Source: an uncultured bacterium (GTDB lineage Bacteria > JAGOEH01). From it: a stretch of 64,000 nt of DNA. The notes beneath the pieces are model-generated. The model did no database searches, was not told where the DNA came from, and saw only the letters and a list, made by a program, of their open reading frames with translations. Where the stretch lies: NCBI GenBank assembly GCA_964632485.1, contig CAZWDO010000002.1, positions 62,001 to 126,000 on the forward strand. Reading direction: 5' to 3'. The translations under genes were made by a program, and so were the position numbers. This document shows, one piece after another, positions 16,211 to 33,142 of this stretch (within the stretch, counting starts at the first letter, position 1; the number at the start of each line of letters is the position of its first letter).

Positions 16211-17330
16211 GGTAAACTGTTTGTCCAGGAATTTCATTGATGACATACGAGTCCGTATCATGCCAGAATAAATAAACGTGCTCTTCCCAATCAAGCGCTT
16301 TATCGTCGAAATAGACCCGTTTGTGCTGGGCGAAGACTCTGAATTCAATCGAGCCGACCTTGACGATATATTGGGTATGAGTGCCGAGATAGAGGATATC
16401 CTCGATATAGCCATCGATAATGTTAAAATCGGATTGGGAACGGGGTTTTGTCCGGGAAATCGCCATTTTTTCCGGCCGCAATGAAATGGTAATTTGCTGT
16501 CCGGCTACCAGTGGAATATGAGAGGCCGTATCGATTTCAAACTCCTGGTCATCCAACACGCAGCGCATCGTTACATAGTCGTCTTCGACGGAAACAACTT
16601 CCCCGCTGAGCAGATTGGTGTCTCCAATAAAATAAGCGGAAAAAACTGTTGTTGGCCGCTCGTAGATATCGTCCGGTGTTCCGACCTGGATGATTTTCGC
16701 GCTGTTCATAATAGCGATGCGATCGGAAATACTCATGGCTTCGCCTTGGTCGTGAGTGACGTAGATAAAGGTAATTCCTACCTCATCATGAATATTCATC
16801 AGCTCGATTAACATGCGTTGGCGGAGTTTGAGGTCCAATGCGGCTAAGGGTTCATCCAGCAGAAGCACCTGGGGTTTGTTGATCAGCGCCCGCGCTATAG
16901 CAACCCGTTGTTTTTGCCCTCCGCTGATTTGGTGGGGGTATTTCCGGGCATGTTCGTTCATTTGCACCAGGTCCAGCATCTGCATCACTTCTCGTTGGAT
17001 ATCTTTTTGGGGCGTTTTTTTTATTTTCAACCCAAAAGCCACATTGTCGAAAACCGTCATGTGGGGAAATAATGAATAGTTTTGAAAAATTGTGTTGACC
17101 TGTCGCTTATTGGGGGCGATGTTTGTAATATCGTGATCGTCAACGTAAATATGCCCCTGGGTGGGTGTTTCAAAACCTGCTATCATACGAAGAATTGTGG
17201 TTTTTCCGCAACCGCTGGGTCCCAGGAATGAAAATAATTCACCCTCTTTGATTTCTAAATTAACCTGGTTGACAGCCATGAATTCATCAAAGATTTTCGT
17301 TAAACCCTCAAGACGGATGGTTCCCATCAC
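16170..17330 (-). CDS. potA: Polyamine ABC transporter ATP-binding protein
   Basis: GPSGCGKT, ISGGQKQR, LLLDEPL and VTHDQ motifs with a C-terminal TOBE-like region. Confidence 0.95.
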   Translation of the reverse strand: MMGTIRLEGLTKIFDEFMAVNQVNLEIKEGELFSFLGPSGCGKTTILRMIAGFETPTQGHIYVDDHDITNIAPNKRQVNTIFQNYSLFPHMTVFDNVAFGLKIKKTPQKDIQREVMQMLDLVQMNEHARKYPHQISGGQKQRVAIARALINKPQVLLLDEPLAALDLKLRQRMLIELMNIHDEVGITFIYVTHDQGEAMSISDRIAIMNSAKIIQVGTPDDIYERPTTVFSAYFIGDTNLLSGEVVSVEDDYVTMRCVLDDQEFEIDTASHIPLVAGQQITISLRPEKMAISRTKPRSQSDFNIIDGYIEDILYLGTHTQYIVKVGSIEFRVFAQHKRVYFDDKALDWEEHVYLFWHDTDSYVINEIPGQTVYHEPTYKFRKKNPA

Positions 17331-17400
17331 ATTCCTTTCTTAGAATTATACGTTGGCTACTAAATTAATCGTTTTTAAGAAAAAATACAACAGCTATTTT

Positions 17401-18725
17401 TCAATTTTCATTCTTTTTTTCAACTTTTAACCCTTTCTGATAATATTTCGAGCCATTTTTCGTATCCCCCTGAATATAGTAAATCATCGCTTTATTGAAA
17501 TAGTAATCGGCAATCCGTGGATTAAGCTTCAGAGCGCGGTTGATCGATTCCAGGGCATCTTTATACTCATTCCTACGATATTGGACAATCGTGAGATTAT
17601 TGTAAAAATCGGAATTGGAATCATCCATTTCAATCGCTTTTAAATAATTTTGTCGCGCCGCATTCAGGCTGTCCAGGTTTAAATATGTATTGCCCAGATT
17701 ATTATAATAATAGGGATGCAGTGGGTCTAACCGAATCGCTTCCTGGTAGCAGGCTAAGGCTTCTGTAAAGTATCCGAGAGCAGTCAGGCTGATTCCGTAA
17801 TTATTATGGATTCCCGGATAAACGCTAAAGAGCTCAATACCTTTTTGATAGTATTCAATTGATTTGAAAAAGTTTTCCTCTTCATAGAAAAAACGCCCGA
17901 TATTTTCATATTGACAAGCAATCAGTTGAGAACTGTCCAGTTCGATCATATAGATTTTATTTTCCACCAATGCAGGCGCCAATTTCATTTTATAATAAAA
18001 TTTGAATGAATAATATTATTGTAAATTATTTTAAAGTTACATTATCATACGGTGCTATTAGAGGTATTTTTTATAATCATAATAGAAATGATATTTGTGC
18101 AAATGATAAAATTTTTATGATATTAGCCACATCTTTAATAAACCCTGTATATTTTTATAGCAGTTTAATGCATGATACTAAAAATATTGATTTATTTTTA
18201 CAAGGTAAAAATATTGATAAAAAAGATTGGNNNNNNNNNNGGCGCCAATTTCATTTTATAATAAAAATCTGCTTTTTCTTCACCCAGCAGCGCTTCCCAA
18301 TTCATCTTTTCAGGCCATCGTAAAAACAGATGGTCGCGGGTTTGGACGGCAACTACGGGAAATCCTGCCATCTGAGCGATGCTCAGATAGAGAACGGCAA
18401 AATTGTCACAATCAAATGTTTTGGCTTTCAGGGCGGAACTAAGGAGCAGATTCGATTGATAGTGGATACCTTCCCCGATGAGCGCTTGATGGACTGTATA
18501 AAAAAAATACCAGGGATCGGGTTTAGCTAATATCCCTTTTTCCTGCAGAGAAAGCCAGGCATCATTCAGTAATTTGTTTAATATACTATCCGGTAAAGAA
18601 TCCTGATAGCAACCCGCTTCCCGTTCCAATTCCAGAAAACGGTGGGCCATAGTGGGCGTATTATCGCCTGAACTGTTAATTAACATACTAAGAATAATTA
18701 AAATCATTCGAACACTTTTTTTCAT
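17401..18725 (-). CDS. Transglutaminase-like (SirB1/Transglut_core2-type) plus TPR protein, interrupted in this assembly
   Basis: The 5' part has a signal-like N-terminus and DCDNFAVLY..DHLFLRW. The 3' part (17401-17988) has TPRs. Both parts contain MKLA inside a shared 26-bp repeat, and joining them there gives an in-frame 352-aa protein. Confidence 0.75.
17975..18266. repeat. 26-bp direct repeat flanking an AT-rich insert and an N-gap
   Basis: GGCGCCAATTTCATTTTATAATAAAA occurs at 17975-18000 and 18241-18266; N10 at 18231-18240. Confidence 0.95.
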
Positions 18726-18731
18726 ATCCTT

Positions 18732-18760
18732 ATTTTAATATGAAATTTGGGATTTGTCAA
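18732..18760 (-). promoter_or_regulatory. Sigma70-type promoter, apparently leaderless
   Basis: TTGACA (18760-18755), 17 nt, TAAAAT (18737-18732), 6 nt, ATG 18725. Confidence 0.65.
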
Positions 18761-18868
18761 GATTAATTTTTTTATTGCTCAACTTTTGGATTGTATTCAT
18801 GAAAAAGATGATTGGATCCAGTAGAATTGTATATGAAATGAAAAATTTAAAATCATGAAGAGTATTTC

Positions 18869-18922
18869 TTAATCAATTTTTAACAATTCATTAATTTTAA
18901 GTTCATAATTGAATTCTATATT
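18869..18922 (+). promoter_or_regulatory. Pho-box-like 11-bp-period repeat array plus -10 element
   Basis: TTAATC 18869, TTAACA 18880, TTAATT 18891, TTCATA 18902; 9 nt; TATATT 18917-18922. Confidence 0.7.
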
Positions 18923-18952
18923 GAGCATAACTATTAAAAGAAGGGAATTAAA

Positions 18953-21799
18953 ATGAAACGTTACCTTGCCTTGTTGGTGATTATGTTATTAAGTATCGGC
19001 CTGTTGATGGCCGATGAGGCTAAAATTGGTGTCATATTCGGTAAAATTGTAGACCAGGACACCGGAGAGCCATTAATTGGGGTCAATATACTGATTGACG
19101 GCACAATAATGGGCGCTGCCACTGATATCGAGGGCGCGTATCGGATTGAACGTGTTCCCGCTGGAATTTACAGTCTGAAGATTACGTGTATCGGTTATCA
19201 AACGATGAAGCTGCAGTCATTTGAACTGAAGAGTGGTGAAGTGAAGAAGTTTGATATTGCGATGCAGGAACAGTCGATTCAGGCCGATGAGGTAGTGGTG
19301 GAAGCCAAAGCGGTGACCAATACCGAGGCTAGCCTACTAAAAAACCGGCAGAAATCGACTTCTATCAGCGACGCCATCAGTTCCGAGGCAATTTCACGGC
19401 GCGGCAGCGGCAATGCGGCGGATGCCATGACCCAGGTCACCGGCGCGTCGGTCGTAGGCGGAAAATATATCGTCATCCGCGGTTTGGGCGAACGCTATAC
19501 CAGCACTCATCTCAACGGTATCGAACTTCCCAGCACCGATCCCGATAAAAAAACGGTTCACATGGACCTGTTTCCGGGCAATATGCTGGAAAACATTGTT
19601 ACTAAAAAGACCTTTACACCGGATCAACCGGGAAATTTCTCTGGCGGTATTGTCGATATCGGAACTAAAACCCAACCGGAAAAATTTTCCATGAAATTTT
19701 CCTCATCCATGTCCTATAATTCACAGGCGAATTTTAACAACCAGTTTCTCACCTATCAGGGTGGAAATTCCGATTGGCTGGGTGTTGATGACGGTATTCG
19801 CGATTTGCCGGAAATTATCAAAAATAATGACAATCCGTTTCCCACCCCAGTGGAATCCCGTTTCGATAAACAGAAAGCGTCAACCCTGGATCAATATTCA
19901 AAAGCTTTCAACAGCATTATGACGCCCAACCGGACAACATCACCCATCAATCAAAGTTATATGTTTTCGATCGGCAATCAGATTGCTCTTTTCAATCGGC
20001 CGCTTGGGTTTCTTTTCAGTCTGAGTTATAAACGGAATCTGAGTTTTTATGACAATGGTAAAATTCAACGTTGGCAATTGAACGGAACCACCGAGCAGGC
20101 AAATGCCCTGGATTACGAGATGAAGTTAAACGATCATAAAAGCAGTGATGAAGCGCTGGTAGGCAATCTGATGACCGCTTCCTACAAGCTGAGCTCGAAC
20201 CATATTTTCAGCGCTAATTGGTTTTATACTCATAGCGGTGAGAAAACTACTCGCTTTCAAAGCGGCGAATGGCCCGATCAATTGGATTTGAATTCGGTTT
20301 ATGAAACCCGTTCTCTGCTCTTTATTGAGCGTTCCATCCAATCCTTGCAAATGAATGGCCAGCATTTGTTTCTTGATCGGTTGCAGGCGCATTGGAATTT
20401 GACCCGTTCCACCACCGCCCAGGATGATCCCGATTTACGGTTTTTTAGTAATGATTATTCCCTTGATATGGAAAACGGGGATACCACCTGGTCGATCAGC
20501 AAGAACCTCTATAATTATCCCACCCGTTTTTACAGAAGCCTCGAAGAAAACAATACCCATGGCAATCTTAAGTTTTCTCTGCCGGTAAATAACTATGTTC
20601 TGCGCAATGGGAAGATCAGTTTGGGGATGTCGTATGGCTCCATTGACCGCGCGTTTACTGAAAAACGCTATGAAGTTCGTCAGCAGGAAATTCGTTATAT
20701 GGGGAACGACAGCCTGTTTTTCGATCCTTCAAGTTTTGGCATTATCGACAGCGCCAATAATCGCTATCGCTTCGGCAACTATATTTCGGACTGTAGTGAT
20801 TATCGCAATAATTATTCCGGCGACCAGGCAATCCATGCCGGCTTTTTTATGGTCGAATCATATATCAGCTCCCATTTGCGATTCATTACCGGCGTTCGCT
20901 ATGAAACTACCGATTTAACAGTAACCAGTCAGGACACGACAGCGCTTGAAGGCGCAATTTCAACCCGCGATTGGCTGCCGTCTCTAAATTTTGTTTATGA
21001 ACTACCCTGGCGAATGAATCTGCGCCTTTCCTACGGGCGCACTCTTGCCCGTCCAAATTTCCGGGAGATGGCTCCCTTCCGATCTTTCGAATTTATCGGC
21101 GATTATATATTCGAGGGCAATCCTCATCTGAAGCGCACTTTGATCGACAACTATGATTTCCGTTGGGAATGGTTCATAAACCCCGGTGAAATTTTGGCTG
21201 TCAGTACTTTTTACAAACAGTTCCGGAATCCGATTGAGCGCACGATTGAAATCGAAACCAACCAGATTACCTATCAGAACGTGCCCGAAGGCCGGGTCTG
21301 GGGCGCCGAATTTGAAGCGCGCCGTCAATTGGGTTCTTTATGGTCCGCTTTGAATTATTTCGCAGTAAGTTCCAATCTATCCTTGATTCATTCCCAAATT
21401 AATATTCCTGCGGATGAATACCAATTGATTCTTAAATCAGATGTTCATGCCAAAGACACGCGTCCCCTTTTCGGCCAGTCCCCGTACCTGTTCAATATCG
21501 AACTGGCATACGACAATCCCAATTTGGATCTGGTGGCCAATCTCTATTTGAATTTATTCGGTTCCCGCTTGTCGGAAGTTACTATGGGCGCTACCCCGGA
21601 TGTGTTTGAACAGCCGCAGGGCAAGTTGGATTTTTCGATATCGAAGACGTTGCTTAATAATATTCAGTTTAGATTTGGCGCCAATAATATTTTGGATGCT
21701 AAATCCGAAAAAACAATCAAATACAAGGGGAAGAGTTATCTTTTTGAACAGTATGCCAGGGGCCGCAGCTTTTCATTCGGAATTTCGTACGCTCTGTAA
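18953..21799 (+). CDS. TonB-dependent receptor with N-terminal carboxypeptidase-regulatory-like domain
   Basis: Signal peptide; GKIVDQDTGEPLIGVNI; plug region IRGLGERY and KKTFTPD; RPNFRE; GANNILD; C-terminal beta-strand ...FGISYAL. Confidence 0.93.
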   Translation: MKRYLALLVIMLLSIGLLMADEAKIGVIFGKIVDQDTGEPLIGVNILIDGTIMGAATDIEGAYRIERVPAGIYSLKITCIGYQTMKLQSFELKSGEVKKFDIAMQEQSIQADEVVVEAKAVTNTEASLLKNRQKSTSISDAISSEAISRRGSGNAADAMTQVTGASVVGGKYIVIRGLGERYTSTHLNGIELPSTDPDKKTVHMDLFPGNMLENIVTKKTFTPDQPGNFSGGIVDIGTKTQPEKFSMKFSSSMSYNSQANFNNQFLTYQGGNSDWLGVDDGIRDLPEIIKNNDNPFPTPVESRFDKQKASTLDQYSKAFNSIMTPNRTTSPINQSYMFSIGNQIALFNRPLGFLFSLSYKRNLSFYDNGKIQRWQLNGTTEQANALDYEMKLNDHKSSDEALVGNLMTASYKLSSNHIFSANWFYTHSGEKTTRFQSGEWPDQLDLNSVYETRSLLFIERSIQSLQMNGQHLFLDRLQAHWNLTRSTTAQDDPDLRFFSNDYSLDMENGDTTWSISKNLYNYPTRFYRSLEENNTHGNLKFSLPVNNYVLRNGKISLGMSYGSIDRAFTEKRYEVRQQEIRYMGNDSLFFDPSSFGIIDSANNRYRFGNYISDCSDYRNNYSGDQAIHAGFFMVESYISSHLRFITGVRYETTDLTVTSQDTTALEGAISTRDWLPSLNFVYELPWRMNLRLSYGRTLARPNFREMAPFRSFEFIGDYIFEGNPHLKRTLIDNYDFRWEWFINPGEILAVSTFYKQFRNPIERTIEIETNQITYQNVPEGRVWGAEFEARRQLGSLWSALNYFAVSSNLSLIHSQINIPADEYQLILKSDVHAKDTRPLFGQSPYLFNIELAYDNPNLDLVANLYLNLFGSRLSEVTMGATPDVFEQPQGKLDFSISKTLLNNIQFRFGANNILDAKSEKTIKYKGKSYLFEQYARGRSFSFGISYAL

Positions 21800-21883
21800 T
21801 AATACGCTGGGTAGGTCGCAAACCATTCCGCTCAGCGTTTATAGAGTCGAAATGCGCAATAATCAAAAACCAAGGAGAAACGT

Positions 21884-23554
21884 ATGAAACATTTCTGTAA
21901 GTTCTTGACGGCTTTGCTGTTGCTTTCCACGATCGCCATGGCGGCGACCACGGATCTGAACAAGCCGCGCAAAGTGGTAACGGACGCGAGTATCAACGCG
22001 GGCGAGAGCGTATTCTGGAGCAAGGATACGGTGTATGTGATGGATGGGTATGTCTATGTGGAAGAGGGCGCCGTATTGACGATCGAATCGGGCGCGGTGA
22101 TCAAGGGATTAGAGACACCGACGAACGGCAAGAGCGTGTTAGTGATATCGCGCGGCGCGAAGTTATACGCGCAGGGTACGGCGGTGGAGCCGATTATTTT
22201 TACGACAGAGCATGACAGCGTGGCGTTGATGGATACCCCGGAAGCGGGCGATCGCGTGGATTATCGCACGGATCGCAGCTTGTGGGGCGGTGTGGTGTTG
22301 TTGGGCCGCGCGCAGTTGAACGTTTCGACGGAGAAGGTGGTGGAAGGGTTGCCGGACGATCCGCGGGCCTATTACGGCGGCAACGACGATGCCGACAATT
22401 CGGGCGTTTTGCGTTACGTATCGATCCGCTATACGGGCATTACGGTGGAAGCGAATAAGGAATTGCAGGGATTGACCTGCGGTTGTGTGGGCTCTGGCAC
22501 GGTGATCGAGTATGTGGAATCGTTTATGAGCGGCGACGACGGTTTTGAATTTTTCGGGGGGACCTTCAATTCGAAGTATCTGGCGGCGGTATTCGCCGAT
22601 GACGATGCGTTTGACTATGACCAGGGCTATCGCGGCAAGGGCCAGTTCTGGTTCGCGCTTCAGGCTCCGGACAAAGGCGACAAGCTGGGCGAATACGACA
22701 GCGGTGATGAAGGAGCTTACACGGCGACGCCGCTGGCGCAGCCGATGCTTTATAATGTGACGTATATCGGCGGCGGCGCGAGTTCGACCGAGGGCGAAGG
22801 CATCAAATATAAAGAATACGGCGGCGGCGAGCACTACAATAGCATATTCACCGAGATGCGCAAGGAATGCGTGGTAGTGGATTCAGGAGCCGGGGAAACG
22901 AGTTACAATCGTTTGGGCACGGGCATTAAGCTGGAGAACAATTTGTGGTTCAAGAGCGCGGGCGTGGGATTTGACAATGCGACGTTCCTGCCGCAGGCCT
23001 TTATGAAAACCTATCTGGAATCGAACAGCAACTGGGCGGAAGACCCGATGCTGCGCGCGGTCGGCCGTTTGGAAGCGAACAGCCTGGACCCTCGTCCGGC
23101 AGTGAACAGTCCGGCGATGACGCGCGCGTTGAAAAGCTATCCCAGCGACGGCTTTTTCACGGCGGTGAACTATATGGGCGCCTTCGGCCAGGAAAACTGG
23201 CTCTCCGGCTGGACCGCCCTCTCCCATAACGGCGTGGCGACCACCAATGCCCAGCCCAGCGCCATCGACGACCTGCCGACGCGCTGGAATGGCAAGACCT
23301 CCCTCTCCGCCAATTATCCCAATCCGTTCAATCCTACGACCCGCATCCAGTTCAGTCTGAACCAGGCCGGCCGTGTGGAGCTGAATGTCTATAACATGAT
23401 GGGACAGAAAGTGAAAACTTTGGTGAACGCAACCAAGTCCGCCGGTACCTATACGGTGGAATTCGACGGCGCCGGTTTGCCTTCGGGTGTCTATTTCTAT
23501 CAGTTGACCACCCCGGAAACCAGCCTCAATAACAAGATGATGTTGCTCAAATAA
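21884..23554 (+). CDS. Secreted beta-helix-like protein with Por/T9SS type-A C-terminal sorting domain
   Basis: Signal peptide; LTIESG, GTAVEPIIFT, WGGVVLLG, DNSGVLRYVSIRY, DDGFEFFGG and DDAFDYDQGY motifs; C-terminal NYPNPFNP...LPSGVYFYQL...KMMLLK. Confidence 0.85.
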   Translation: MKHFCKFLTALLLLSTIAMAATTDLNKPRKVVTDASINAGESVFWSKDTVYVMDGYVYVEEGAVLTIESGAVIKGLETPTNGKSVLVISRGAKLYAQGTAVEPIIFTTEHDSVALMDTPEAGDRVDYRTDRSLWGGVVLLGRAQLNVSTEKVVEGLPDDPRAYYGGNDDADNSGVLRYVSIRYTGITVEANKELQGLTCGCVGSGTVIEYVESFMSGDDGFEFFGGTFNSKYLAAVFADDDAFDYDQGYRGKGQFWFALQAPDKGDKLGEYDSGDEGAYTATPLAQPMLYNVTYIGGGASSTEGEGIKYKEYGGGEHYNSIFTEMRKECVVVDSGAGETSYNRLGTGIKLENNLWFKSAGVGFDNATFLPQAFMKTYLESNSNWAEDPMLRAVGRLEANSLDPRPAVNSPAMTRALKSYPSDGFFTAVNYMGAFGQENWLSGWTALSHNGVATTNAQPSAIDDLPTRWNGKTSLSANYPNPFNPTTRIQFSLNQAGRVELNVYNMMGQKVKTLVNATKSAGTYTVEFDGAGLPSGVYFYQLTTPETSLNNKMMLLK

Positions 23555-23584
23555 GCAACGAATCGTTTCATTCCCTTCTTTCTC

Positions 23585-23618
23585 AGGGCGCGGCCATCGT
23601 GGTCGCGCCCTTTTTTTT
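23585..23618 (+). terminator. Rho-independent terminator
   Basis: AGGGCGCGGCCA-TCG-TGGTCGCGCCCT hairpin followed by a T run. Confidence 0.9.
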
Positions 23619-23875
23619 AATCACAGACGGCGCCGTTCTGTTCGGCAACAATATGAAAGATAATATCTTGATTCACTGTTAAAGCCCGAATGAATCAAAA
23701 AAAACTTGTTTTTTTAACAAAAAATGATTATATTTTTATATAATATAGTATTGCGCGAAGTATTAAATGGGTGGATAGTGAAGTGCAAAGTTTGCAGAGA
23801 ATATTTGAGAAGAATGGGATTTATAAATCCAGGCATATTATAATATCTTAAGGAACTCAAGATTGAACGATTTGA

Positions 23876-24025
23876 ATGAAATCAAGATCAAGGAGGAAGA
23901 ATGTCGATGGCAATATCATTCGTATTTGTACGATTGCCGATATTCTGGATGACGGGTTCTATCTGGAGTCAAATACAAAATGGGAGCGGTATTTCCCCGC
24001 CATGGAGCTGGAAGTCTGGCGCTGA
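23876..24025 (+). CDS. Possible small protein (49 aa)
   Basis: MKSRSRRKNVDGNIIRICTIADILDDGFYLESNTKWERYFPAMELEVWR, translated by hand. An upstream promoter-like TTGTTT-17-TATATT lies at 23706-23734. No family recognised. Confidence 0.3.
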   Translation: MKSRSRRKNVDGNIIRICTIADILDDGFYLESNTKWERYFPAMELEVWR

Positions 24026-24035
24026 GGCGTGCAAT

Positions 24036-25805
24036 TCAGGAAGATAATTGAATTTTTTCAACCATAAGTTCATGAGACTTCAGATAGCGTTTGATGCGGT
24101 TGGGCTTGAACTTGTAAGTATCCAGCAGAATCAAGCCGTCCACCGCGCCGGAAAAATCGGGATCAATGTTGAATCCCAAAAACGCGATTCCGTCGGGGGC
24201 GCATAGGTCGCAGTATTTACGGAAAAGTACCGGAATACTGTAGCCATAGATTTTAAGATGTTCTTTTAATTGACGAAGATCGCTATCCACGGTTTGGCTG
24301 GAAACGCTTTTTATTTCGTTGGAATTCGATGTTTTCCCTGGAATATAGGGATTTCGTGGAGATACGCATTGAATAGGGGAGGGATACCAATGCGTATAAT
24401 AATTGACAATTAGGTCCTTAATCGGATCAGGATAAGTATTGCTGATGGTAACGGCCCCGATCAGATAGCGAATACCTTCTTTGGCATTCAGATAGGCTCC
24501 GATGCCTTGCCAGAGATAATCCAACGCGTTGTGACGCCAATATTTTTCCTGAATGAAAGAGCGCCCCAGTTCGATTGATTGCTCCAGTATCGATTTGCTC
24601 GCGTTTTGGTATCCAAACAGTGAATGCGTATAAAGACCCTGGAAATCCCGAAGAGGAAGGATATCGCGAATCGTCAGTAAACGATAAGCGCCGACGACTT
24701 CCAATTCCTTATCATCCCAAAGGATGAGATGATCATAATATCGGTCATACTCATCGTGATCCAGTCGTTTCCCCGTGCCTTCGCCGACTTTACGAAATGT
24801 GATCTCACGCAGGCGCGCAATTTCCAATAATAGATTGGGCGCTTGATCGCCATTGAGCAAGTGAAGTCGAAAGCGCTCCCCGAAATCGAGCAGCAGGTTT
24901 TCTTCATGCAATTCGTGTTTGAGCGTTCGTCGGGAAACAGGAGCTATGATCGTTTTTTCCGTATGGAAAATAGTTCGATTTCGATTTTCCTGAAACGATC
25001 CCAACCGATAGACGTGTTTACGTAAAAGTTTAATTTCCTTTTCCGGTTTTAAGCTGGAATTTTTAAAATGGGCGCCGGCGATGGGATCGCCGATAAAAAG
25101 TTCTATTTTTTTATGACGTTTTAAAAATAGTTCATTGGGCAGCAGCAGCATGGAAAATGATTTGTTCAGCCAGGACAGGAAGTAGAATAAAGCGGAATTG
25201 CGACTTTTCACGCGAATCGGCAGAATTGGGGCGCTGTATTTCTTCGCGTAAGTCAGTGTACCCTTCATCCATTTTTTATCTTTAAGGCCGTTGAGGCCCA
25301 ATCGGGATACTTCGGCGGCGGGAAAGAAAATCACGACGCCTTCATTTTTCAATACGAACTCGATTTGCTGGTGGCTTTGCCGCCGCGAGGCGTGGGAAAA
25401 CACATCTACGGGAATGAATAGATTTCTCAGGGGTCCAAGATGCATTAGAACATCGTTGACGACAATTTTGACGTCGGAGCGAACGGAGCCGATCAACAAC
25501 AGGACGGACAAGGCATCCAGCGCCCCCAGCGGGTGATTGGCCACGCATATCAGCCGCCCTTCGGCTGGAATCCGCTGTCGTTCCTTTTCAGACGTGACAA
25601 AGGTAAAATCCAGATAATCGAAAACTTCTCGGATCAATTCGAAATCCTTGACGGATGGATGGCGCTGGAGAAATGTATCTATTTCGTTTATATGCAATAA
25701 ATGACGCAAAAATCCGTTGATTAAACTCTGCGCCCAGGAAGGGTATTTTTTCAGAAATTCCGGCGCGTATTGCTCTAAAATCAGGTTTAGATTAATTGAG
25801 TTCAT
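24036..25805 (-). CDS. olsF: Bifunctional acyltransferase (PlsC-like plus GNAT), OlsF-like aminolipid/ornithine lipid synthase
   Basis: N-terminal NHPLGALD (HX4D) and FPAAEVSR; C-terminal EIARLREITFRKVGEGTG, VGAYR, ELGRSFI and DPDFSGAVDGLI (OlsB-like GNAT). Confidence 0.8.
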   Translation of the reverse strand: MNSINLNLILEQYAPEFLKKYPSWAQSLINGFLRHLLHINEIDTFLQRHPSVKDFELIREVFDYLDFTFVTSEKERQRIPAEGRLICVANHPLGALDALSVLLLIGSVRSDVKIVVNDVLMHLGPLRNLFIPVDVFSHASRRQSHQQIEFVLKNEGVVIFFPAAEVSRLGLNGLKDKKWMKGTLTYAKKYSAPILPIRVKSRNSALFYFLSWLNKSFSMLLLPNELFLKRHKKIELFIGDPIAGAHFKNSSLKPEKEIKLLRKHVYRLGSFQENRNRTIFHTEKTIIAPVSRRTLKHELHEENLLLDFGERFRLHLLNGDQAPNLLLEIARLREITFRKVGEGTGKRLDHDEYDRYYDHLILWDDKELEVVGAYRLLTIRDILPLRDFQGLYTHSLFGYQNASKSILEQSIELGRSFIQEKYWRHNALDYLWQGIGAYLNAKEGIRYLIGAVTISNTYPDPIKDLIVNYYTHWYPSPIQCVSPRNPYIPGKTSNSNEIKSVSSQTVDSDLRQLKEHLKIYGYSIPVLFRKYCDLCAPDGIAFLGFNIDPDFSGAVDGLILLDTYKFKPNRIKRYLKSHELMVEKIQLSS

Positions 25806-26887
25806 ACTATCTCCCTTTCCAGAATTGATGTTGAAAATCCGTTAAGCAACGCAATCAGCGCCAAATCGAGCAATAATACCAAATAAAATGTGATGAACCG
25901 CCATCCAATCATCAACACTCCGATAATTTCCAGCGGAATCAGGGATTGATAGATAAAATAAAAAGCGGCTTCGGCGCCTCCGCTGCCGCCGGGTAGGGGG
26001 AATACGCACATGAACATATAGACGATCCATTGCAATACGAAAAATTCCAGAAATGAAATTTGCAATCCGAGGGACCAGGCAATCACGGCGATAATGGAAA
26101 ACCGACAAATCCATTGCATGATCGATAACGAAAACGCCAGGGCGAAACAGACTCCGCCCGTTTGCTGAATCTGCGCCAGAGCACGTTTTATTTCTCCGAT
26201 ATGTTCTTGGATTGCCGGTTTGATTTTAATAAAAAAATCCGCAAGTTTTCGATAGATAACGGTTTTTTTGATAATCGCAATTTTTGTTATCAGCCATCCA
26301 GTAAGCATAATGATTGATACGATCCATACCGTTTGCGATAAATGGATCGATTTAATAATGTGATTGATAAAGGGGTATTGATGTTGGGAAATGACAAAAA
26401 TTACCATGGGGATATTCAAAATTAGAAACAAAGCATCCTCAATCGATCCGAAGGAAGTGATACATACGGCTTTTCCCAGCGATATCCCCTCGCTCATCAA
26501 TAGGCTGATTTTGACTGGAGCGCCGCCCAAAGCGGTGGGTGTGACTACTGAACTCAGTTCCGAAGCGATCACCATACGAAAAATGCTTTTAAAACTGATG
26601 CGATATCCCAGAAATCGAGTCCATATTCTGCACCTGAAGGAATTGAGAAACCAGGGCAGGGTAGCCAGTATGATAATCGGTACTATCCAAATGGGTGAGA
26701 AGTTGCGGAGTGATGACCAAACCTCGCGATCCGTTGTGAAAAAAGTAATGATCAACATAGTAAATACGCTCAATGATATAATGACAATCAGTGAGCGAAT
26801 AATTTTTTTCATGACTAAACGGTCTATAGCCATTTGGCCCGATAATAACCGGCTGATTTGAACTGATATAACAGCGCTTTCCGGCAT
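25802..26887 (-). CDS. Lysylphosphatidylglycerol-synthase-TM / UPF0104 flippase-like membrane protein
   Basis: Multiple TM segments with VTPTALGGAP, PLPGGSGGAE and WRFITFY motifs. Alternative start at 26812. Confidence 0.85.
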   Translation of the reverse strand: MPESAVISVQISRLLSGQMAIDRLVMKKIIRSLIVIISLSVFTMLIITFFTTDREVWSSLRNFSPIWIVPIIILATLPWFLNSFRCRIWTRFLGYRISFKSIFRMVIASELSSVVTPTALGGAPVKISLLMSEGISLGKAVCITSFGSIEDALFLILNIPMVIFVISQHQYPFINHIIKSIHLSQTVWIVSIIMLTGWLITKIAIIKKTVIYRKLADFFIKIKPAIQEHIGEIKRALAQIQQTGGVCFALAFSLSIMQWICRFSIIAVIAWSLGLQISFLEFFVLQWIVYMFMCVFPLPGGSGGAEAAFYFIYQSLIPLEIIGVLMIGWRFITFYLVLLLDLALIALLNGFSTSILEREIV

Positions 26888-26936
26888 GGGGTTTGTTTCC
26901 TTTCGTTTGGTTTTTGGAAATCTTGAATTTTCTTTG

Positions 26937-26990
26937 AATATACATTTGTTTGATTAAGACAATATTAGGGTATAATTAAATTTCCATTAA
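26937..26990 (-). promoter_or_regulatory. Pho-box-like 11-bp-period repeat array plus -10 element
   Basis: Minus strand: TTAATG (26990), TTAATT (26979), CTAATA (26968), TTAATC (26957); 9 nt; TATATT (26942-26937). Confidence 0.7.
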
Positions 26991-27192
26991 TAATACAAGT
27001 TCGGCTACCCAAAATATTCCAATTTAAAAAGGAAGCTGCAAGGCAAATTTTAAAGGGGAATGCTCACAATTCAAGGCATTTGCCGCTAATTCCGTTAATT
27101 TTCAATTACTATTTTCAGCTCAAAGGGGAAGCTCCCGGTTTCCCGCTTGATATTATGGTTGAGAACAGGTGAGTTACAATCCTTTTGTTGGA

Positions 27193-27246
27193 ATAACTGA
27201 AAATTAACCATAAAGAAATTTAATCTTAACAATCACTTTGTATATT
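27193..27246 (+). promoter_or_regulatory. Pho-box-like 11-bp-period repeat array plus -10 element
   Basis: ATAACT 27193, TTAACC 27204, degenerate GAAATT 27215, TTAACA 27226; 9 nt; TATATT 27241-27246; 6 nt; ATG 27253. Confidence 0.65.
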
Positions 27247-27252
27247 GCAGTC

Positions 27253-27981
27253 ATGGAACTTGACAAATTATTAACAATCGTGCTTCCAGTTAAAAATGAA
27301 GCCCGCAATATTTTAACTTTTTTAAGGTCGGTACCCCCTGATATTCCATTAGTAGTAGTGGACGCAGGCGATGATGAGACATCCTCAATCATCAAAACCA
27401 TACGAACTCGGCGAACCGTTCTTTTGAGGGATCCCGGGAATATTCCCCGGGCGAGGCATTTGGGAGCTCAAATCGCATCAACACCCTGGTTGCTGTTTTG
27501 TGATGCGGATATTGAATTTGCCGATTTTTATTTCCATCGGATTTCCTCTTCATTACTCTATTCGGATATGATTTATGGATCCAAATTAAGCCGCAACCAG
27601 CATCAGTGGTATTATCGTAGTTTTTTGCTGGGTCAAACAATTTTTGACCGGATAGGTATCCCAGCGGCCAGTGGTTCGAATTTACTTGTTCGGCGTGATG
27701 TTTATTTTAAAATTGGTGGTTTTGATGCCGGATTACCAGTCAACGAAGATTCAGAAATTGCCTGGCGCGCGCAACGGATGGGATACCGCGTCCGTTTCGT
27801 TAAGCATTTAGCGGTTTTTTCATTTGATCACCGGCGCTTGAAAATGGGCGCCTGGAATAAACATCGGCATACCTTAGCGCGTTGTTTTTCTCTCTATTTC
27901 AACCGCTTCACGCCTGAAGAACGGTTGGATGACCGGGGATATTGGCCTATATATGAAATATTGGATAACAAATCTAACTGA
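27253..27981 (+). CDS. Glycosyltransferase family 2
   Basis: IVLPVKNE, VVVDAGDDET, LFCDAD (DxD) and GGFD...EDSE motifs. Start placed at ATG 27253. Confidence 0.88.
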   Translation: MELDKLLTIVLPVKNEARNILTFLRSVPPDIPLVVVDAGDDETSSIIKTIRTRRTVLLRDPGNIPRARHLGAQIASTPWLLFCDADIEFADFYFHRISSSLLYSDMIYGSKLSRNQHQWYYRSFLLGQTIFDRIGIPAASGSNLLVRRDVYFKIGGFDAGLPVNEDSEIAWRAQRMGYRVRFVKHLAVFSFDHRRLKMGAWNKHRHTLARCFSLYFNRFTPEERLDDRGYWPIYEILDNKSN

Positions 27982-27990
27982 AAGGATGTT

Positions 27991-30390
27991 ATGGACTTTG
28001 AACGTATAATGAAAGCCGATCTGCATGTCCACTCTAAATATTCAGAACACCCCAGCGAATGGCTTCTTAAAGCTATTGGCACTCGTGAATCCTATACGGA
28101 ACCGCTATATATTTATCAAATATGCAAAAAGCTGGGAATGGATCTGGTAACCATTACTGATCATAATGCCATTGATGGAGTTCTACTTCTGAAAGACCGT
28201 TATCCTGCCGATGTGATAACCGGGGTGGAAGCTACCAGTTATTTCCCTGAAGATCGTTGCAAAATCCATGTGCTTATTTATGGTTTTACTCCGGAACAGT
28301 TTGGAGAAATCAATATTCTGCGCAATGATATATACCAATTACGCGATTACCTGATCCGTGAAAATCTGGCCTATTCAATCGCTCACGCCACCTTTTCTGT
28401 AAATGATCGTTTGCTCTTCAAACATCTGGAACAATTAATACTTCTATTCAATACGTTCGAAACGATTAACGGCGGTAGAAATCAGAGCCATAACACTACC
28501 TGGCTTAAAGTATTAAAAAATCTGACACCCGATATTATGGCTGATTTATATGAAAAATATCGAATTGAACCCCACGGTGAAACTCCCTGGATAAAAGGGT
28601 TTACCGGAGGTTCGGACGATCATGCCGGTTTGTTTATGGCTCAAACGGGAACTTCAATATCCGCTCAAAACCCGGAAGATTTTTTACAAGGGCTGAGGGA
28701 TAGAAAAAGTGAAGCCTTTGGGCGACATAATGAATTTTATTCCCTGGCTTTTATTATATACAAAGTTGGCTATGATCATATGAAAAATAAAGGAATCCAG
28801 TTTTCGGATACCCTGGTAAATCAACTGAATGATCTTCTGTTTCAAAATCATGCTTTTTCGATAAAACAACATTATATGGTTTACCAGTTGAAAAAGAATT
28901 ATCGTAAACGCAATGACCGGATTCAGGGTTTGTTAGCCAATCTGATTCAGAAAAATTTGAAAAACAGTGAACTTAATTTGGATCAAAAATTGGAAAATAT
29001 TTATCAGGATATTGCTGATATCGCAGACTATATTTTTTCTGCGTCAATAGAATCAATACGAAAAGATTTTAGAAAGCTCGATTTGATTAATATTTTTCGA
29101 CAGTTCTCTTCCATGCTGCCGGGAGTTCTGCTTACTTTTCCCTTTTTGTCCACTGTCAAGCACTTTTTTCAGGATAAAAATTTACTGCATCAATTGGAAA
29201 CGACTTTCCTGCACACAAAACAGCAGAAATACAAGAAAATATTCTGGTTTACCGATACAATCAACGATTTGAACGGAGTTTCCGTTACACTGAAAAAAAT
29301 CGGTTGGTTGTCTTACAGCAAGAATTATCCGCTGACTTTGGTTTCTGCGATGAAGGATGATGAAATAAAGGATGATTTGCCTCCCAATTTGCTATCATTG
29401 CCAATTATCGCAGAAATCTCTCCCGATTTTTACAATTCCTATTTAATCAAATTTCCTTCTATTTTGAAATCATTGAAATTGATTTATGATGCCAATCCCG
29501 ATGAAATTATTATTTCCACTCCGGGTCCCATTGGTTTACTGGGGTTACTGGTAGGTAAACTTATGAAGATACCGATTAAAACTATCTTCCATTCCGATTT
29601 CACCAAAGAATTTGAAAAGATTTTAGGAGAAGGCGGTGAATTGGCAATTGTTGATGCCTTTATTCATTGGTTCTATCATCAAAGCGATCATATTATGGTA
29701 CCCACTGAGGAATATATTCGGATTTTAACTGAACGAAAATATGATACGGCTAAAATGAGCCGTTTCTTCCGCGGTATTGATGTGTCTGAATTTAATCAGA
29801 AACTGACGGGGAAGAATATCATTAATGATTTTATTAAACAGGATAATGGGTTTGTAATGCTTTATACTGGAAGAATTTCAATGGATAAAGAACTTGATTT
29901 TATAGTAAAAGTATTCAATAGTCTAACTCAAAAAATAGATAATCTGTATCTGGTTATCTGTGGAGAGGGTCCCTATCTGGAAGAACTTAAATTGAGTACC
30001 CAATCGATTTCGTCTATTTTTTACAGTGGACGGCTTGATCAGCGGATTCTGCCCTATTTTTATTCCGGAGCAGATCTTCTGGTATTTCCAAGCACGACTG
30101 ATACGTTTGGTATGTCTGTTCTGGAAGCGCAGGCCTGCGGATTGCCGGCAATTGTCAGTAATGTCGGCGGACCGAAAGATATTATCATCGAAAAAGAAAC
30201 TGGTTGGATTGCTCCCGCTGATCAATTATCGGATTGGGTGAACCAAATTCGGGAAATTATCGATTTGAATAATAATAACCCGAAGGAATATAATAAAATT
30301 CGTGAACAAGCGATACTCAATGTTCAGAATAATTATGATTGGAACAATATTTTAGCTGATTTTTTCAAGGAAGACGCCGCCAAGAGCTAA
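27991..30390 (+). CDS. PHP-domain / glycosyltransferase family 4 fusion protein
   Basis: PHP motifs DLHVHSKYS, ITDHN, GVE, HVL, AH and GGSDDHAG; GT4 motifs NGVSVT, TPGPIG, YTGRISMDK and FPSTTDTFGMSVLEAQACGLP. Confidence 0.9.
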   Translation: MDFERIMKADLHVHSKYSEHPSEWLLKAIGTRESYTEPLYIYQICKKLGMDLVTITDHNAIDGVLLLKDRYPADVITGVEATSYFPEDRCKIHVLIYGFTPEQFGEINILRNDIYQLRDYLIRENLAYSIAHATFSVNDRLLFKHLEQLILLFNTFETINGGRNQSHNTTWLKVLKNLTPDIMADLYEKYRIEPHGETPWIKGFTGGSDDHAGLFMAQTGTSISAQNPEDFLQGLRDRKSEAFGRHNEFYSLAFIIYKVGYDHMKNKGIQFSDTLVNQLNDLLFQNHAFSIKQHYMVYQLKKNYRKRNDRIQGLLANLIQKNLKNSELNLDQKLENIYQDIADIADYIFSASIESIRKDFRKLDLINIFRQFSSMLPGVLLTFPFLSTVKHFFQDKNLLHQLETTFLHTKQQKYKKIFWFTDTINDLNGVSVTLKKIGWLSYSKNYPLTLVSAMKDDEIKDDLPPNLLSLPIIAEISPDFYNSYLIKFPSILKSLKLIYDANPDEIIISTPGPIGLLGLLVGKLMKIPIKTIFHSDFTKEFEKILGEGGELAIVDAFIHWFYHQSDHIMVPTEEYIRILTERKYDTAKMSRFFRGIDVSEFNQKLTGKNIINDFIKQDNGFVMLYTGRISMDKELDFIVKVFNSLTQKIDNLYLVICGEGPYLEELKLSTQSISSIFYSGRLDQRILPYFYSGADLLVFPSTTDTFGMSVLEAQACGLPAIVSNVGGPKDIIIEKETGWIAPADQLSDWVNQIREIIDLNNNNPKEYNKIREQAILNVQNNYDWNNILADFFKEDAAKS

Positions 30391-30757
30391 GACAATTCCC
30401 CATTTTGGGGGCAAAAAAATCAATATGACGAAGTAAATGGATATGATTATATTAATGTTAAAGGTTGTATAAACGTAAGTCTCGATGTCAGATGAATATC
30501 ATAGCTTTCTCTATATTTTTATATAGTGTTGCTTCCGATATATCACTGCCTGAATCCTGTATAGGTTACACCGAATCATATTCCCAATTTCAATATATTG
30601 TTGGATTGACTTTCACTATGGGTTTTGCTAGTGTTTGGTTTTACTTGGCAATCACACTCAGAGCGGCGTTGGAATGTATCCACCATGATGCGTTAGCGGT
30701 TGTTTTCTAAAAGAGCAATTAATAGAGGGGTCTTCCAGTAGGGTGAGATGCCTATTC

Positions 30758-30962
30758 CCTTCGCTTCCTTTGGGGGAGAACTTCAACCATTCAACCCTCG
30801 TCCCCCTTTTGGTGGAGAAGGTTTCCCATTATTTCCTCGCCTCCTTTGGGGGAGAGGGCAGGGTGAAGGGGGTATTCCTGCAGAGTGGGGGGAGAGTGGA
30901 TTCCGGGCGCAAGCTTGCAGGACCGGCTCCGGATCGCGCGGCCAGTCAAACCCGGAATGACA
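30758..30962. repeat. Degenerate REP-like palindromic repeats
   Basis: Three related units CCTCG..CCTTTGGGGGAGA at about 30758, 30795 and 30835, the last followed by GGGCAGGGTGAAGGGG. Inverted repeat ATTCCGGG (30900) / CCCGGAAT (30951) ends in GGAATGACA. Confidence 0.55.
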
Positions 30963-31142
30963 AACAAGCTCAGACGTTAATCGCCACGACTGTGACTTCA
31001 TAGCCGAATGGATTGCTGTTTTCTGGATATGTCAGTTCCGCCTGCCCTTTCACCAGCGGGGCGTGAGTTCGGCCGCTGTCGAGGGAAATTTGACTGAATT
31101 TGTTATCTATACAATTGTAGAATATCCGGAGAGGATGAGCAT

Positions 31143-32846
31143 TCATCTTATAAGCGTCAATTTGCGGATAATCGGCCCCTTTGTGGTTTGCATTTTACAG
31201 AAATAGACACCGCTTGCCAAGTAATACAGTGGAATGGGAATCTGATGGATACCTTGTTGATACCAACCTTGAAATGAGATATTCATTTGACGGCCAGTCA
31301 TATCGTAGAAATCACCGCGGATTTGTCCGGCCTCTTTTAATCCTAAAGTGATATTAACCGAATAAGTTGCTGGATTGGGATGGATTTCGAGAAAAATGGG
31401 TTCCGGTTGGATTGCCGGCATAGTTTCCAAATTTGTACTCACTGGAAGTGGATATAATATGATAAATAGCGCTGACCATGGGATTAACTGGAGAGAAACG
31501 AGGCTGTCAGCGGCGTCAATCGTTGAGGAATCAATGATGGAAAGTTTCCCCTTGTCACTGATTTCTTTAACGATTAGTCTCTGAGAGCCGAGCGCAGACC
31601 TGCCACGGATTGTGAGTAAAGCGGAATTTAATGCGTCGCCATAATTGGAAATCAGCGCATAGAGAGTATCCCCCTGGAGTGTTTTAGATGCCGTGATGGT
31701 ATTGCCCAGTGTATCAGAACCATCGGCCAGCATCCGTTGAGTGTTTAAAGTCATCGTTTTCCAAGCTTTTAATATATAAGCGGCGGTTTTCAACTGACGG
31801 GCGCTATCATCAACTAATCCGAGAGGATGGTTGTCGGCGCGATATTGATAGCTTTCAGCAATGTTTAGTGCGGTGAAATAATTCAGGGTTGCCGCATAAA
31901 ACGCCGCGCCCTGGCCACGATTAGCGAAGTTGCGTACGTTCAATTCAGCATTCCATTCGGTCACCCATTGTTCGGTGTCTGAATAACCGAAACGGTTTAA
32001 CACGTCTTGATACTCGTGATACTTTTTAATGAACAGATATGGAGTAGCTTCCGGTGTATCGAACGAACTGCCATAGGAATGCCAGGAAAAAAAATCGATG
32101 GGTGTCTGCTGATTGCGGCAGTAGGAGAGGAGGGAATCGATGAAATCAGCGTTACTGTTTCCTTCTTGGCCGGGTCCGCCTATTATTAAGCTGGGATCCA
32201 GGGATTTGAGATTTTTGGCGACGATATTGAACATTTGGCGAAACTGCTGGTAGGTGCCCTGCCAGAATTGTTCTTCAAAAGAAGGTTCATTCCAAATTTC
32301 CCAACGCTTTATATTCCAGAATCGGCCATTGGCCCATCCCTGGTTGTAATGTATGACGATATGTCGGCAAATCCGGGCGAATTTGATAAAATCCAGTGAA
32401 TCTGCGTCTTTTATGATGTTCCCATTGTTGTCGCGGATGGTGCCGGGCGGATCCGCATTGAATGAACCGGGTTCACCCCAACTGACCCCCAGCCGGAAGA
32501 GAATTTCAAATCCATTTTCAATGAGCGGTTCGAGAAGGCTGTCGGTCGTGGCGAAGCAATAGCTGCTTTCCAGTTCGGTATCGGCGTTCCAGTCGGGAAA
32601 TATCGTGTTCCAGTCAGAGGGTCCGTACCAGTCCTGTGTGCGGATGATCGAAATACCCAGTTCATGGTAATAGGGCAGGGCGGATGTTGTATCGTTCATC
32701 AGAAATGGCCCTCCATGCGATCCGATTTTATGGTTGAATTCACCTATGACGCTGTCGGCGTCGATAGTGAAGGAGCGGTCAAGGGGAAAATCCGTTGAAT
32801 GAAAGCCAATGAGCAGAATCAGACAAAAATAAACATAATATTTCAT
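31143..32846 (-). CDS. Glycoside hydrolase family 39-like (clan GH-A) with Por/T9SS C-terminal domain
   Basis: WEIWNEP acid/base, DFFSWHSY, VTEWN nucleophile; C-terminal HPNP...LASGVYFC. Confidence 0.82.
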   Translation of the reverse strand: MKYYVYFCLILLIGFHSTDFPLDRSFTIDADSVIGEFNHKIGSHGGPFLMNDTTSALPYYHELGISIIRTQDWYGPSDWNTIFPDWNADTELESSYCFATTDSLLEPLIENGFEILFRLGVSWGEPGSFNADPPGTIRDNNGNIIKDADSLDFIKFARICRHIVIHYNQGWANGRFWNIKRWEIWNEPSFEEQFWQGTYQQFRQMFNIVAKNLKSLDPSLIIGGPGQEGNSNADFIDSLLSYCRNQQTPIDFFSWHSYGSSFDTPEATPYLFIKKYHEYQDVLNRFGYSDTEQWVTEWNAELNVRNFANRGQGAAFYAATLNYFTALNIAESYQYRADNHPLGLVDDSARQLKTAAYILKAWKTMTLNTQRMLADGSDTLGNTITASKTLQGDTLYALISNYGDALNSALLTIRGRSALGSQRLIVKEISDKGKLSIIDSSTIDAADSLVSLQLIPWSALFIILYPLPVSTNLETMPAIQPEPIFLEIHPNPATYSVNITLGLKEAGQIRGDFYDMTGRQMNISFQGWYQQGIHQIPIPLYYLASGVYFCKMQTTKGPIIRKLTLIR

Positions 32847-33142
32847 GAATACCTCACTTGGAATTGATTGTCAATAATCAGACTCTCACAATAAATCGGT
32901 ACCATTACTCCATTGCAATCTGTTGATATTGAGCATATCTGCCAGTCCTGTATGGCAAAACCATCGCATTTATAGCCGACATATATTAATATATAGAGGG
33001 ATAGTAATGATGTCAATAATAAAAAATTTTTGCTTAAAATTAACAAAGTTTCCGGTATCCCATGAAAGATATTGTTAATGCACACTAAATTAAATTGCTG
33101 GAAAATGTTAGTTTTTCTCAGCGATCTCAGAGCCGAGAGTGG

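Follow-up and report, generated by a model that had tools for sequence, protein, structure and literature searches.

Regulators of the Pho type bind 11-nt repeats in tandem and head-to-tail, as described in a review (PMC4415409). In the pstS promoter of E. coli K-12, the repeats GTCATA, GTCATA, TACATA, and GTCACC follow each other with an 11-bp period, the third one being weak, and 9 nt separate the last repeat from the -10 hexamer TATTTT. The cyanobacterial SphR box was reported to consist of 8-bp units, CTTAACCT, repeated in tandem and separated by linkers of 3 bp (PMC1906773), and the TTAA core of the Synechocystis PhoB box was tested and reported to be needed for binding (PMC11126600). Here, we analyzed a stretch of 64,000 nt from an uncultured bacterium (JAGOEH01; contig CAZWDO010000002.1, positions 62,001 to 126,000), hereafter called the window. 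It contains three arrays of direct repeats: array A lies before an operon for a TonB-dependent receptor, array B before the UPF0104/olsF operon, and array C before an operon encoding a GT2 glycosyltransferase and a PHP-GT4 fusion protein. We put the probability at a little over nine in ten that these three operons belong to a Pho regulon with a TTAA box of the cyanobacterial type and would be switched on together under phosphate starvation.

An earlier note on this stretch had described each array as four hexamer positions with an exact period of 11 bp, followed by 9 nt and an identical TATATT, and all of these elements were found (Table 1). As in Pho promoters, the tandem direct repeats stand in place of a -35 element at a fixed distance from the -10 hexamer. 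A canonical -35 is indeed missing, as TTGACA is matched at no more than three of six positions in the three sites (16–18 nt spacing). Other promoters of the window do use TTGAC(A/T), again as the note had it: TTGAC(A/T)-N16-18-TANNNT occurs in 9 of 26 promoter regions, none of them belonging to the three arrays. The statement that only one position of the third array is degenerate had to be corrected. The motif TTAA(C/T)N is exact in eight of the 12 hexamers (three of four each in A and B, two of four in C), and degeneracy is therefore not limited to one position. A generic sigma-70 scan yielded no excess over shuffled sequences (42 vs 40.0 matches), and no Rfam match was found within positions 17000-33500 of the window.

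Table 1. Predicted features of the three operons and their promoters, with coordinates in the window.
Feature	Position	Strand	Details
Array A, four direct-repeat hexamers, 11-bp period (predicted Pho boxes)	18869..18907	+	31.4 bits; TTAATC 18869, TTAACA 18880, TTAATT 18891, TTCATA 18902; then 9 nt
-10 hexamer TATATT of promoter A, 9 nt past the last repeat, without -35	18917..18922	+	
TonB-dependent receptor, 948 aa	18953..21799	+	PF13715, PF07715, PF14905/PF00593
Secreted pectate-lyase-like beta-helix protein, 556 aa, C-terminal sorting domain of type IX secretion system (T9SS) type	21884..23554	+	PF28492
Intrinsic-terminator-like hairpin (12 pairs, T run), end of operon A	23585..23611	+	pattern match only
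OlsF, bifunctional ornithine lipid synthase, 589 aa	24036..25805	-	NF052615, 665.1 bits (cut-off 620)
UPF0104 / LPG_synthase_TM flippase-like membrane protein, 361 aa, first gene of operon B	25802..26887	-	PF03706, TIGR00374
-10 hexamer TATATT of promoter B	26937..26942	-	
Array B, four hexamers, 11-bp period	26952..26990	-	30.9 bits; TTAATG 26990, TTAATT 26979, CTAATA 26968, TTAATC 26957; then 9 nt
Array C, four positions, 11-bp period: two exact, one near, one degenerate	27193..27231	+	25.7 bits; ATAACT 27193, TTAACC 27204, GAAATT 27215, TTAACA 27226; then 9 nt
-10 hexamer TATATT of promoter C	27241..27246	+	
GT2 glycosyltransferase, 242 aa	27253..27981	+	PF00535
PHP-GT4 fusion protein, 799 aa: PHP phosphoesterase domain, helical linker, GT4 glycosyltransferase domain	27991..30390	+	

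The geometry of the three sites is that of E. coli pstS, including four repeats, a weak third repeat, and the spacing to the -10 hexamer, but the repeat core is TTAA(C/T)N instead of GTCA(T/C)N. The Bacillus PhoP consensus is TT(A/T/C)ACA. The note's assignment to the OmpR/PhoB style of 11-bp repeats stands, with the qualification that the closest described box is not that of Bacillus but the cyanobacterial SphR/PhoB box with its TTAA core in tandem repeats. The window differs from the SphS-SphR regulon in having four repeats rather than three at strong sites, in its non-cyanobacterial lineage, and in its targets, namely OlsF, PHP-GT4, and the TonB receptor pair. A literature search, with subscription journals mostly outside its coverage, returned no confirmable report of a TTAA(CA) box outside cyanobacteria.

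In order to judge how rare the pattern is, we scanned the whole genome (G000, 97.95% complete; C2, C5, C6, and C8 below are its contigs) with a scoring matrix trained on arrays A, B, and C only. A simple script called 3355 genes, giving 1686 upstream (promoter) regions. Six of these reached at least 22 bits, including the three training sites. In 30 local (25-nt) shuffles the mean was 0.07 regions at this threshold, and one shuffle reached 25.2 bits; 60 column-permuted matrices gave a mean of 0.13 regions (maximum 2). With periods of 9, 10, 12, or 13 no region reached 22 bits. A spacer of 9 nt gave the most matches (6), followed by 7 nt (3) and 11 nt (2), the latter two probably as a result of TATATT matching itself at an offset of 2. 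The pattern is far rarer in randomized DNA than in the promoter regions of the genome.

The top match outside the training set (C2:+175179, 24 bits) lies approximately 33 nt upstream of the only pstS gene of the genome. This promoter ranked fourth of 1686, directly behind the three training sites, and second to fourth in all six leave-one-out runs. It heads an operon in the order pstS-pstC-pstA-pstB-phoU, and all five genes score above their NCBIfam cut-offs. Since there is a single pstS promoter among approximately 1700, the odds of a chance coincidence are about 1 in 1700. The phosphate-starvation reading of the earlier note thereby gained support, with co-activation of the operons as a predicted consequence. 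The genome scan that it had proposed came out in its favour, with the pst operon recovered as the top new match. The promoters of phoA and ppk carry no box, a difference from the E. coli system. Boxes at phosphatase and polyphosphate kinase genes are a common but not universal trait of Pho regulons. No PhoD match was found in the genome.

The architecture has an independent copy in another genome of the same order (G002). Its pstS gene is preceded by TTAACA, TTAACA, CTAATC, and TTAACA, followed by 9 nt and TATATT (31.1 bits). The 9-nt distance between repeats and -10 hexamer is thus common to the three arrays, pstS of G000 and G002, and E. coli pstS. These results bear on the idea that the arrays arose from AT-rich, helically phased DNA (with UP-element-like or nucleoid-protein sites) or lined up by chance in front of a normal -10 hexamer. 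The regions are very AT-rich, array C is degenerate, one of the 30 shuffles passed 25 bits, and TATATT is the most common -10 hexamer among the TTGAC(A/T)-N17 promoter-like sites of the genome (105 of 392). However, shuffles, permuted matrices, and other periods gave almost no matches, the best independent match is pstS, and the pattern recurs at pst loci of other genomes. This explanation is therefore largely refuted, and we consider it the least probable of all those weighed here.

The other two matches of at least 22 bits were found before a gene for a GT2/GT21 glycosyltransferase (C6:204730, PF13506) and before a second TonB receptor (C5:71362). The receptor site was kept as an uncertain member because a perfect TTGACA sits 16 nt before its -10 hexamer. 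At C6:204651-207380, the 22.5-bit array is followed by two genes, one for the GT21/HpnI-like glycosyltransferase and one for a DUF6938 protein that weakly matches diglucosyl-diacylglycerol synthase; both are likely further members with a role in lipid remodelling. Matches under approximately 18 bits (msrAB, lemA-like, C25, C9, and coding-region sites) were at the level of shuffled sequences and were not counted as members. Directly 3' of phoU (C2:179566-181398) lies a gene for an EAL-GGDEF protein, and a homologue with 48% identity is found beside the receptor pair in genome G320, hinting at a cyclic di-GMP output under phosphate control.

The earlier note had placed the regulator outside the window. 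The only match to the OmpR-family Trans_reg_C domain in the genome is indeed encoded elsewhere (C8:106954-107637). A kinase gene follows 3' (C8:107679-109382) and next to it lies a convergent gene for a Na/Pi cotransporter, an order that is kept in a genome of the same family (G001; 92% complete, approximately 360 contigs), where the cotransporter gene also stands beside the regulator pair. The regulator shares 39% identity with E. coli PhoB, and the recognition helix is nearly the same. In 300 genomes, with the two kin genomes G001 and G002 excluded, 23 homologues were found at E ≤1e-66, and the best 20 of these 23 loci were analyzed. Genes for pst or phoU were present in 13 of the 20 loci, and three of the seven loci without them were contigs of less than 10 kb. 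With the window matrix unchanged, arrays of at least 20 bits were found in eight of the 20 loci, seven of which contain pst genes. Because locus context, that is pst/phoU neighbours, decides here, we read the regulator as a PhoB/PhoP orthologue. By genomic context, and at scores below the curated cut-offs, the two genes appear to encode a PhoR-PhoB-like pair, which together with PstSCAB and PhoU would complete the likeness to E. coli.

Further observations concern the regulator locus itself. The regulator pair forms the tail of an operon led by a gene for a DegT/PseC-type aminotransferase (C8:105669-109382), likewise in G001. Upstream of this operon lies a three-repeat array that overlaps a TTGACA (rank 4 of 1686 in a three-repeat scan), a possible autoregulatory site. 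A four-repeat array (C8:111222-111260; 18.5 bits without -10) runs antisense across a promoter-like site, TTGACA-17-TAACTT, 5' of the Na/Pi cotransporter gene and could serve to repress low-affinity uptake. There is precedent for such repression in other bacteria.

We then asked how often the arrays recur before homologous genes. For this purpose, the matrix was relaxed (A or C at position 3, broader -10) after viewing the two pstS promoters and before scoring the loci. The receptor set comprised 19 loci, one of which was too short (G002 and, of the 33 other genomes in which a beta-helix match was found, 18); for PHP-GT4, 18 of 26 matching loci were scored. An upstream array was found at p ≤0.05 versus local shuffles in 9 of 18 receptor loci (period 10, 3/18; period 12, 0/18) and in 11 of 18 PHP-GT4 loci (1/18 for either control period). 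Among other genes in the same loci, which served as control, 10 of 154 reached this level. When the test was run with three repeats, 11 of 25 upstream regions of PHP-GT4 homologues reached p ≤0.05; one of the 26 loci was too short. As in the window, PHP-GT4 and the receptor pair are neighbours within approximately 15 kb in G167 and G320. Homologues of olsF at loci L035-L037 have the same geometry weakly (13.5-16.1 bits) and were given little weight because of these scores and their close kinship. Some control genes carry Pho-like arrays (L124:+14216, L129:-13082, L149:+11146, L146:+13780, L144:+14795, and L125:+5081), among them a gene for a TPR protein between PHP-GT4 and receptor in G167; these boxed neighbours are possible further regulon members.

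Not every site need be active. When each window array was left out of training, its rank among the 1686 regions was 2 (A), 3 (B), and 8 (C); scored without the -10 term, the ranks were 2, 5, and 23. Array C is therefore the weakest of the three. The boxes might be real Pho boxes with one window site inactive (array C being weak or dead) or repressing, a view that overlaps with the Pho regulon proposed here. Only two of four repeats of array C are exact, its leave-one-out rank is the lowest, and the review cited above (PMC4415409) mentions PHO boxes that are confirmed although the genes behind them show no clear regulation by phosphate. On the other hand, all three sites share the activator geometry of pstS and have no -35, and PHP-GT4 homologues carry arrays at 11 of 18 loci. 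We regard an inactive or repressing site as improbable, though the most plausible of the departures from a fully active set.

Several points weigh against a Pho regulon at these loci, and the first concern the signal. The best NCBIfam model of the regulator is PhoB, but at 237 bits it stays below the cut-off of 296. For the kinase, PnpS ranks first, followed by WalK and PhoR, all below cut-off, and the nearest solved structure of the regulator by sequence is BaeR. The same OmpR-family regulator could thus respond to envelope stress or another signal, as BaeR- or WalR-like proteins would, with pstS as one target among envelope genes. In addition to the BaeR structure and the second rank of WalK, the envelope and lipid nature of the targets and the unboxed phoA (rank 799) and ppk (rank 504) promoters fit with this. 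However, PhoB scores higher than BaeR among the NCBIfam models (216 bits for the latter), 13 of the 20 homologue loci adjoin pst or phoU, phoU is present in the genome, and the pair neighbours a Na/Pi cotransporter gene, so that we consider a different signal very unlikely. The remaining points concern promoters and distribution. As TATATT is the most common -10 hexamer of the genome, its sharing is not regulon-specific, and array C falls to rank 23 once the -10 term is removed. About half of the homologue loci have no array, and the receptor orthologue of G002 has a weak one (10.7 bits, p 0.045). With the queries used, neither olsF nor full-length PHP-GT4 was found in G001 or G002, and for promoters B and C the comparison therefore relied on more distant homologues; pstS was not found in G001, whose assembly is incomplete as given above. 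Only one of the 18 loci contains pst genes in the beta-helix set, and likewise in the PHP-GT4 set. The genomes counted are partly related, and the locus counts therefore overstate independence. Finally, the evidence for the regulon is sequence, with binding and expression predicted.

For the Pho regulon that we favour, a mechanism can be proposed. Low phosphate would be relayed via Pst and PhoU to the kinase, which would phosphorylate the regulator. The phosphorylated regulator would bind head-to-tail to the four 11-bp repeats, with two dimers in tandem covering the -35 region, and recruit sigma-70 RNA polymerase to the -10 hexamer located 9 nt downstream. Activators of this type contact sigma-70. 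Operon A would provide the TonB receptor and the secreted beta-helix protein for scavenging of phosphorus at the cell surface, operon B the flippase-like protein and OlsF for ornithine lipids, and operon C GT2 and PHP-GT4 for glycolipids. The genes pstSCAB-phoU for high-affinity uptake and probably the GT2/GT21 gene on C6 would be induced at the same time. As a net effect, phospholipids would be replaced by ornithine lipids and glycolipids. The regulatory mechanism itself is textbook and the system is of a well-known kind. The analysis defines a putative phosphate-starvation regulon for a little-studied lineage and shows that the TTAA-type Pho box, known from tests in cyanobacteria, is also found at pst loci elsewhere among bacteria. 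It also ties two widespread and poorly understood elements, the PHP-GT4 fusion and the TonB receptor with its beta-helix partner, to predicted phosphate control, and names the C6 glycosyltransferase and the C5 receptor as two more candidate members.

For the lipid genes, the closest described case is Desulfovibrio alaskensis G20, in which mutants of olsF (Dde_3661) and Dde_3613 were reported to lose ornithine lipids and glycolipids and to grow poorly at low phosphate; the supplement annotates the Agt-like Dde_3613 with an N-terminal PHP domain (PMC5193443). The main text of that paper contains neither 'pho box' nor 'PHP'. The window protein likewise has an N-terminal PHP domain plus GT4, a likeness by annotation as given in that source. 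In contrast to D. alaskensis, the two genes lie in divergent operons, together with the GT2 or the flippase-like gene, each with a predicted box. The gene calls of the earlier note hold: OlsF, a fusion of an acyltransferase and a GNAT domain, passes its NCBIfam cut-off, and the PHP domain is supported at the family level. In promoter C, the -10 hexamer ends only 6 nt before the start codon (ATG, 27253), and the mRNA is therefore probably leaderless.

The GT4 domain of PHP-GT4 was recognized both by Pfam and by fold. Taken alone, the window protein stays below the Pfam cut-off for PHP (E 0.014); among 20 aligned homologues, 17 match PF02811 and 15 match PF13263 (E ≤0.1). All of 16 full-length sequences share H12, H14, D57, H58, E80, H93, H132, D209, and H211, and we take this pattern (HxH, DH, E, H, H, DxH) to represent the PHP metal ligands. 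A fold predicted from the single sequence was useless (predicted local distance difference test score, pLDDT, 35.5), whereas that from 16 sequences was good (85.0). Foldseek with the latter returned only GT-B folds among the matches listed, and the PHP call therefore rests on sequence and Atlas evidence. The N-terminal 410 residues match 2674 database proteins.

PHP-GT4 is thus a candidate phosphorus-free glycolipid synthase. A more specific idea, which we put forward tentatively and hold to be somewhat less than even in its chances, is that the protein converts phospholipids to glycolipids in one polypeptide under Pho control. The intact PHP metal site would strip a phosphate-bearing head group or dephosphorylate phosphatidic acid, and GT4 would glycosylate the resulting diacylglycerol. 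If true, PHP-GT4 would stand in for PlcP and Agt together in many anaerobic lineages, and an organic phosphorus source would be imported by a matching route, the boxed receptor with its beta-helix partner. Ten calcineurin-like phosphoesterase genes were found in the genome, and no strong box precedes any of them (the best ranks 17, the others 412 or worse). Only one gene is LpxH/PlcP-like; it has no box (rank 892) and may be required for lipid A. A literature search, again with little access to subscription journals, found no paper on the role of the PHP domain in these glycosyltransferases among the hits listed. The spacer after PHP-GT4 (30795-30961) contains a small dispersed repeat with eight partial matches (78-89% identity) elsewhere in the genome.

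Operon A resembles loci described in two other bacteria. In F. johnsoniae PUSIV (Fjoh_0545/0546), Fjoh_0545 is reported as phosphate-induced, with its Pfam trio listed (PMC8115612), and Caulobacter cc0171/elpS is reported as a phosphate-starvation-linked TonB receptor beside a surface or secreted protein with a pectin-lyase-like fold (PMC2996285). The functions of Pus3 and Pus4 are described as hard to predict (bioRxiv 10.64898/2026.09.03.749221). The window receptor has the same Pfam trio as Fjoh_0545, and, as for ElpS and the Flavobacterium proteins FI-FIII, a pectin-lyase-like fold is encoded beside it; the likeness is one of protein families as listed in these sources. In 17 of the 18 other genomes analyzed, the beta-helix gene has a homologue of the receptor gene as its neighbour. 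The beta-helix protein has no solved relative by sequence. In place of the lipid anchor of ElpS and the Flavobacterium proteins, it has a T9SS-type sorting domain, and inspection of its N-terminus by eye revealed no lipobox cysteine at the cleavage site. A further difference is that operon A is not located beside phoBR. The beta-helix protein is a candidate that may work like ElpS or Flavobacterium FII.

On the other side of promoter A, two open reading frames of 169 and 195 codons (window 17401-18707, minus strand) match consecutive parts of one 352-aa protein of G002. Between them lie the only N run of the window (18231-18240) and a 26-nt direct repeat (17975-18000 and 18241-18266). An assembly join very probably splits one gene for a transglutaminase-like protein with TPR here. 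In G002, this gene is located 3' of the receptor and beta-helix genes; in the window, it is divergent and has its own TTGACA-type promoter.

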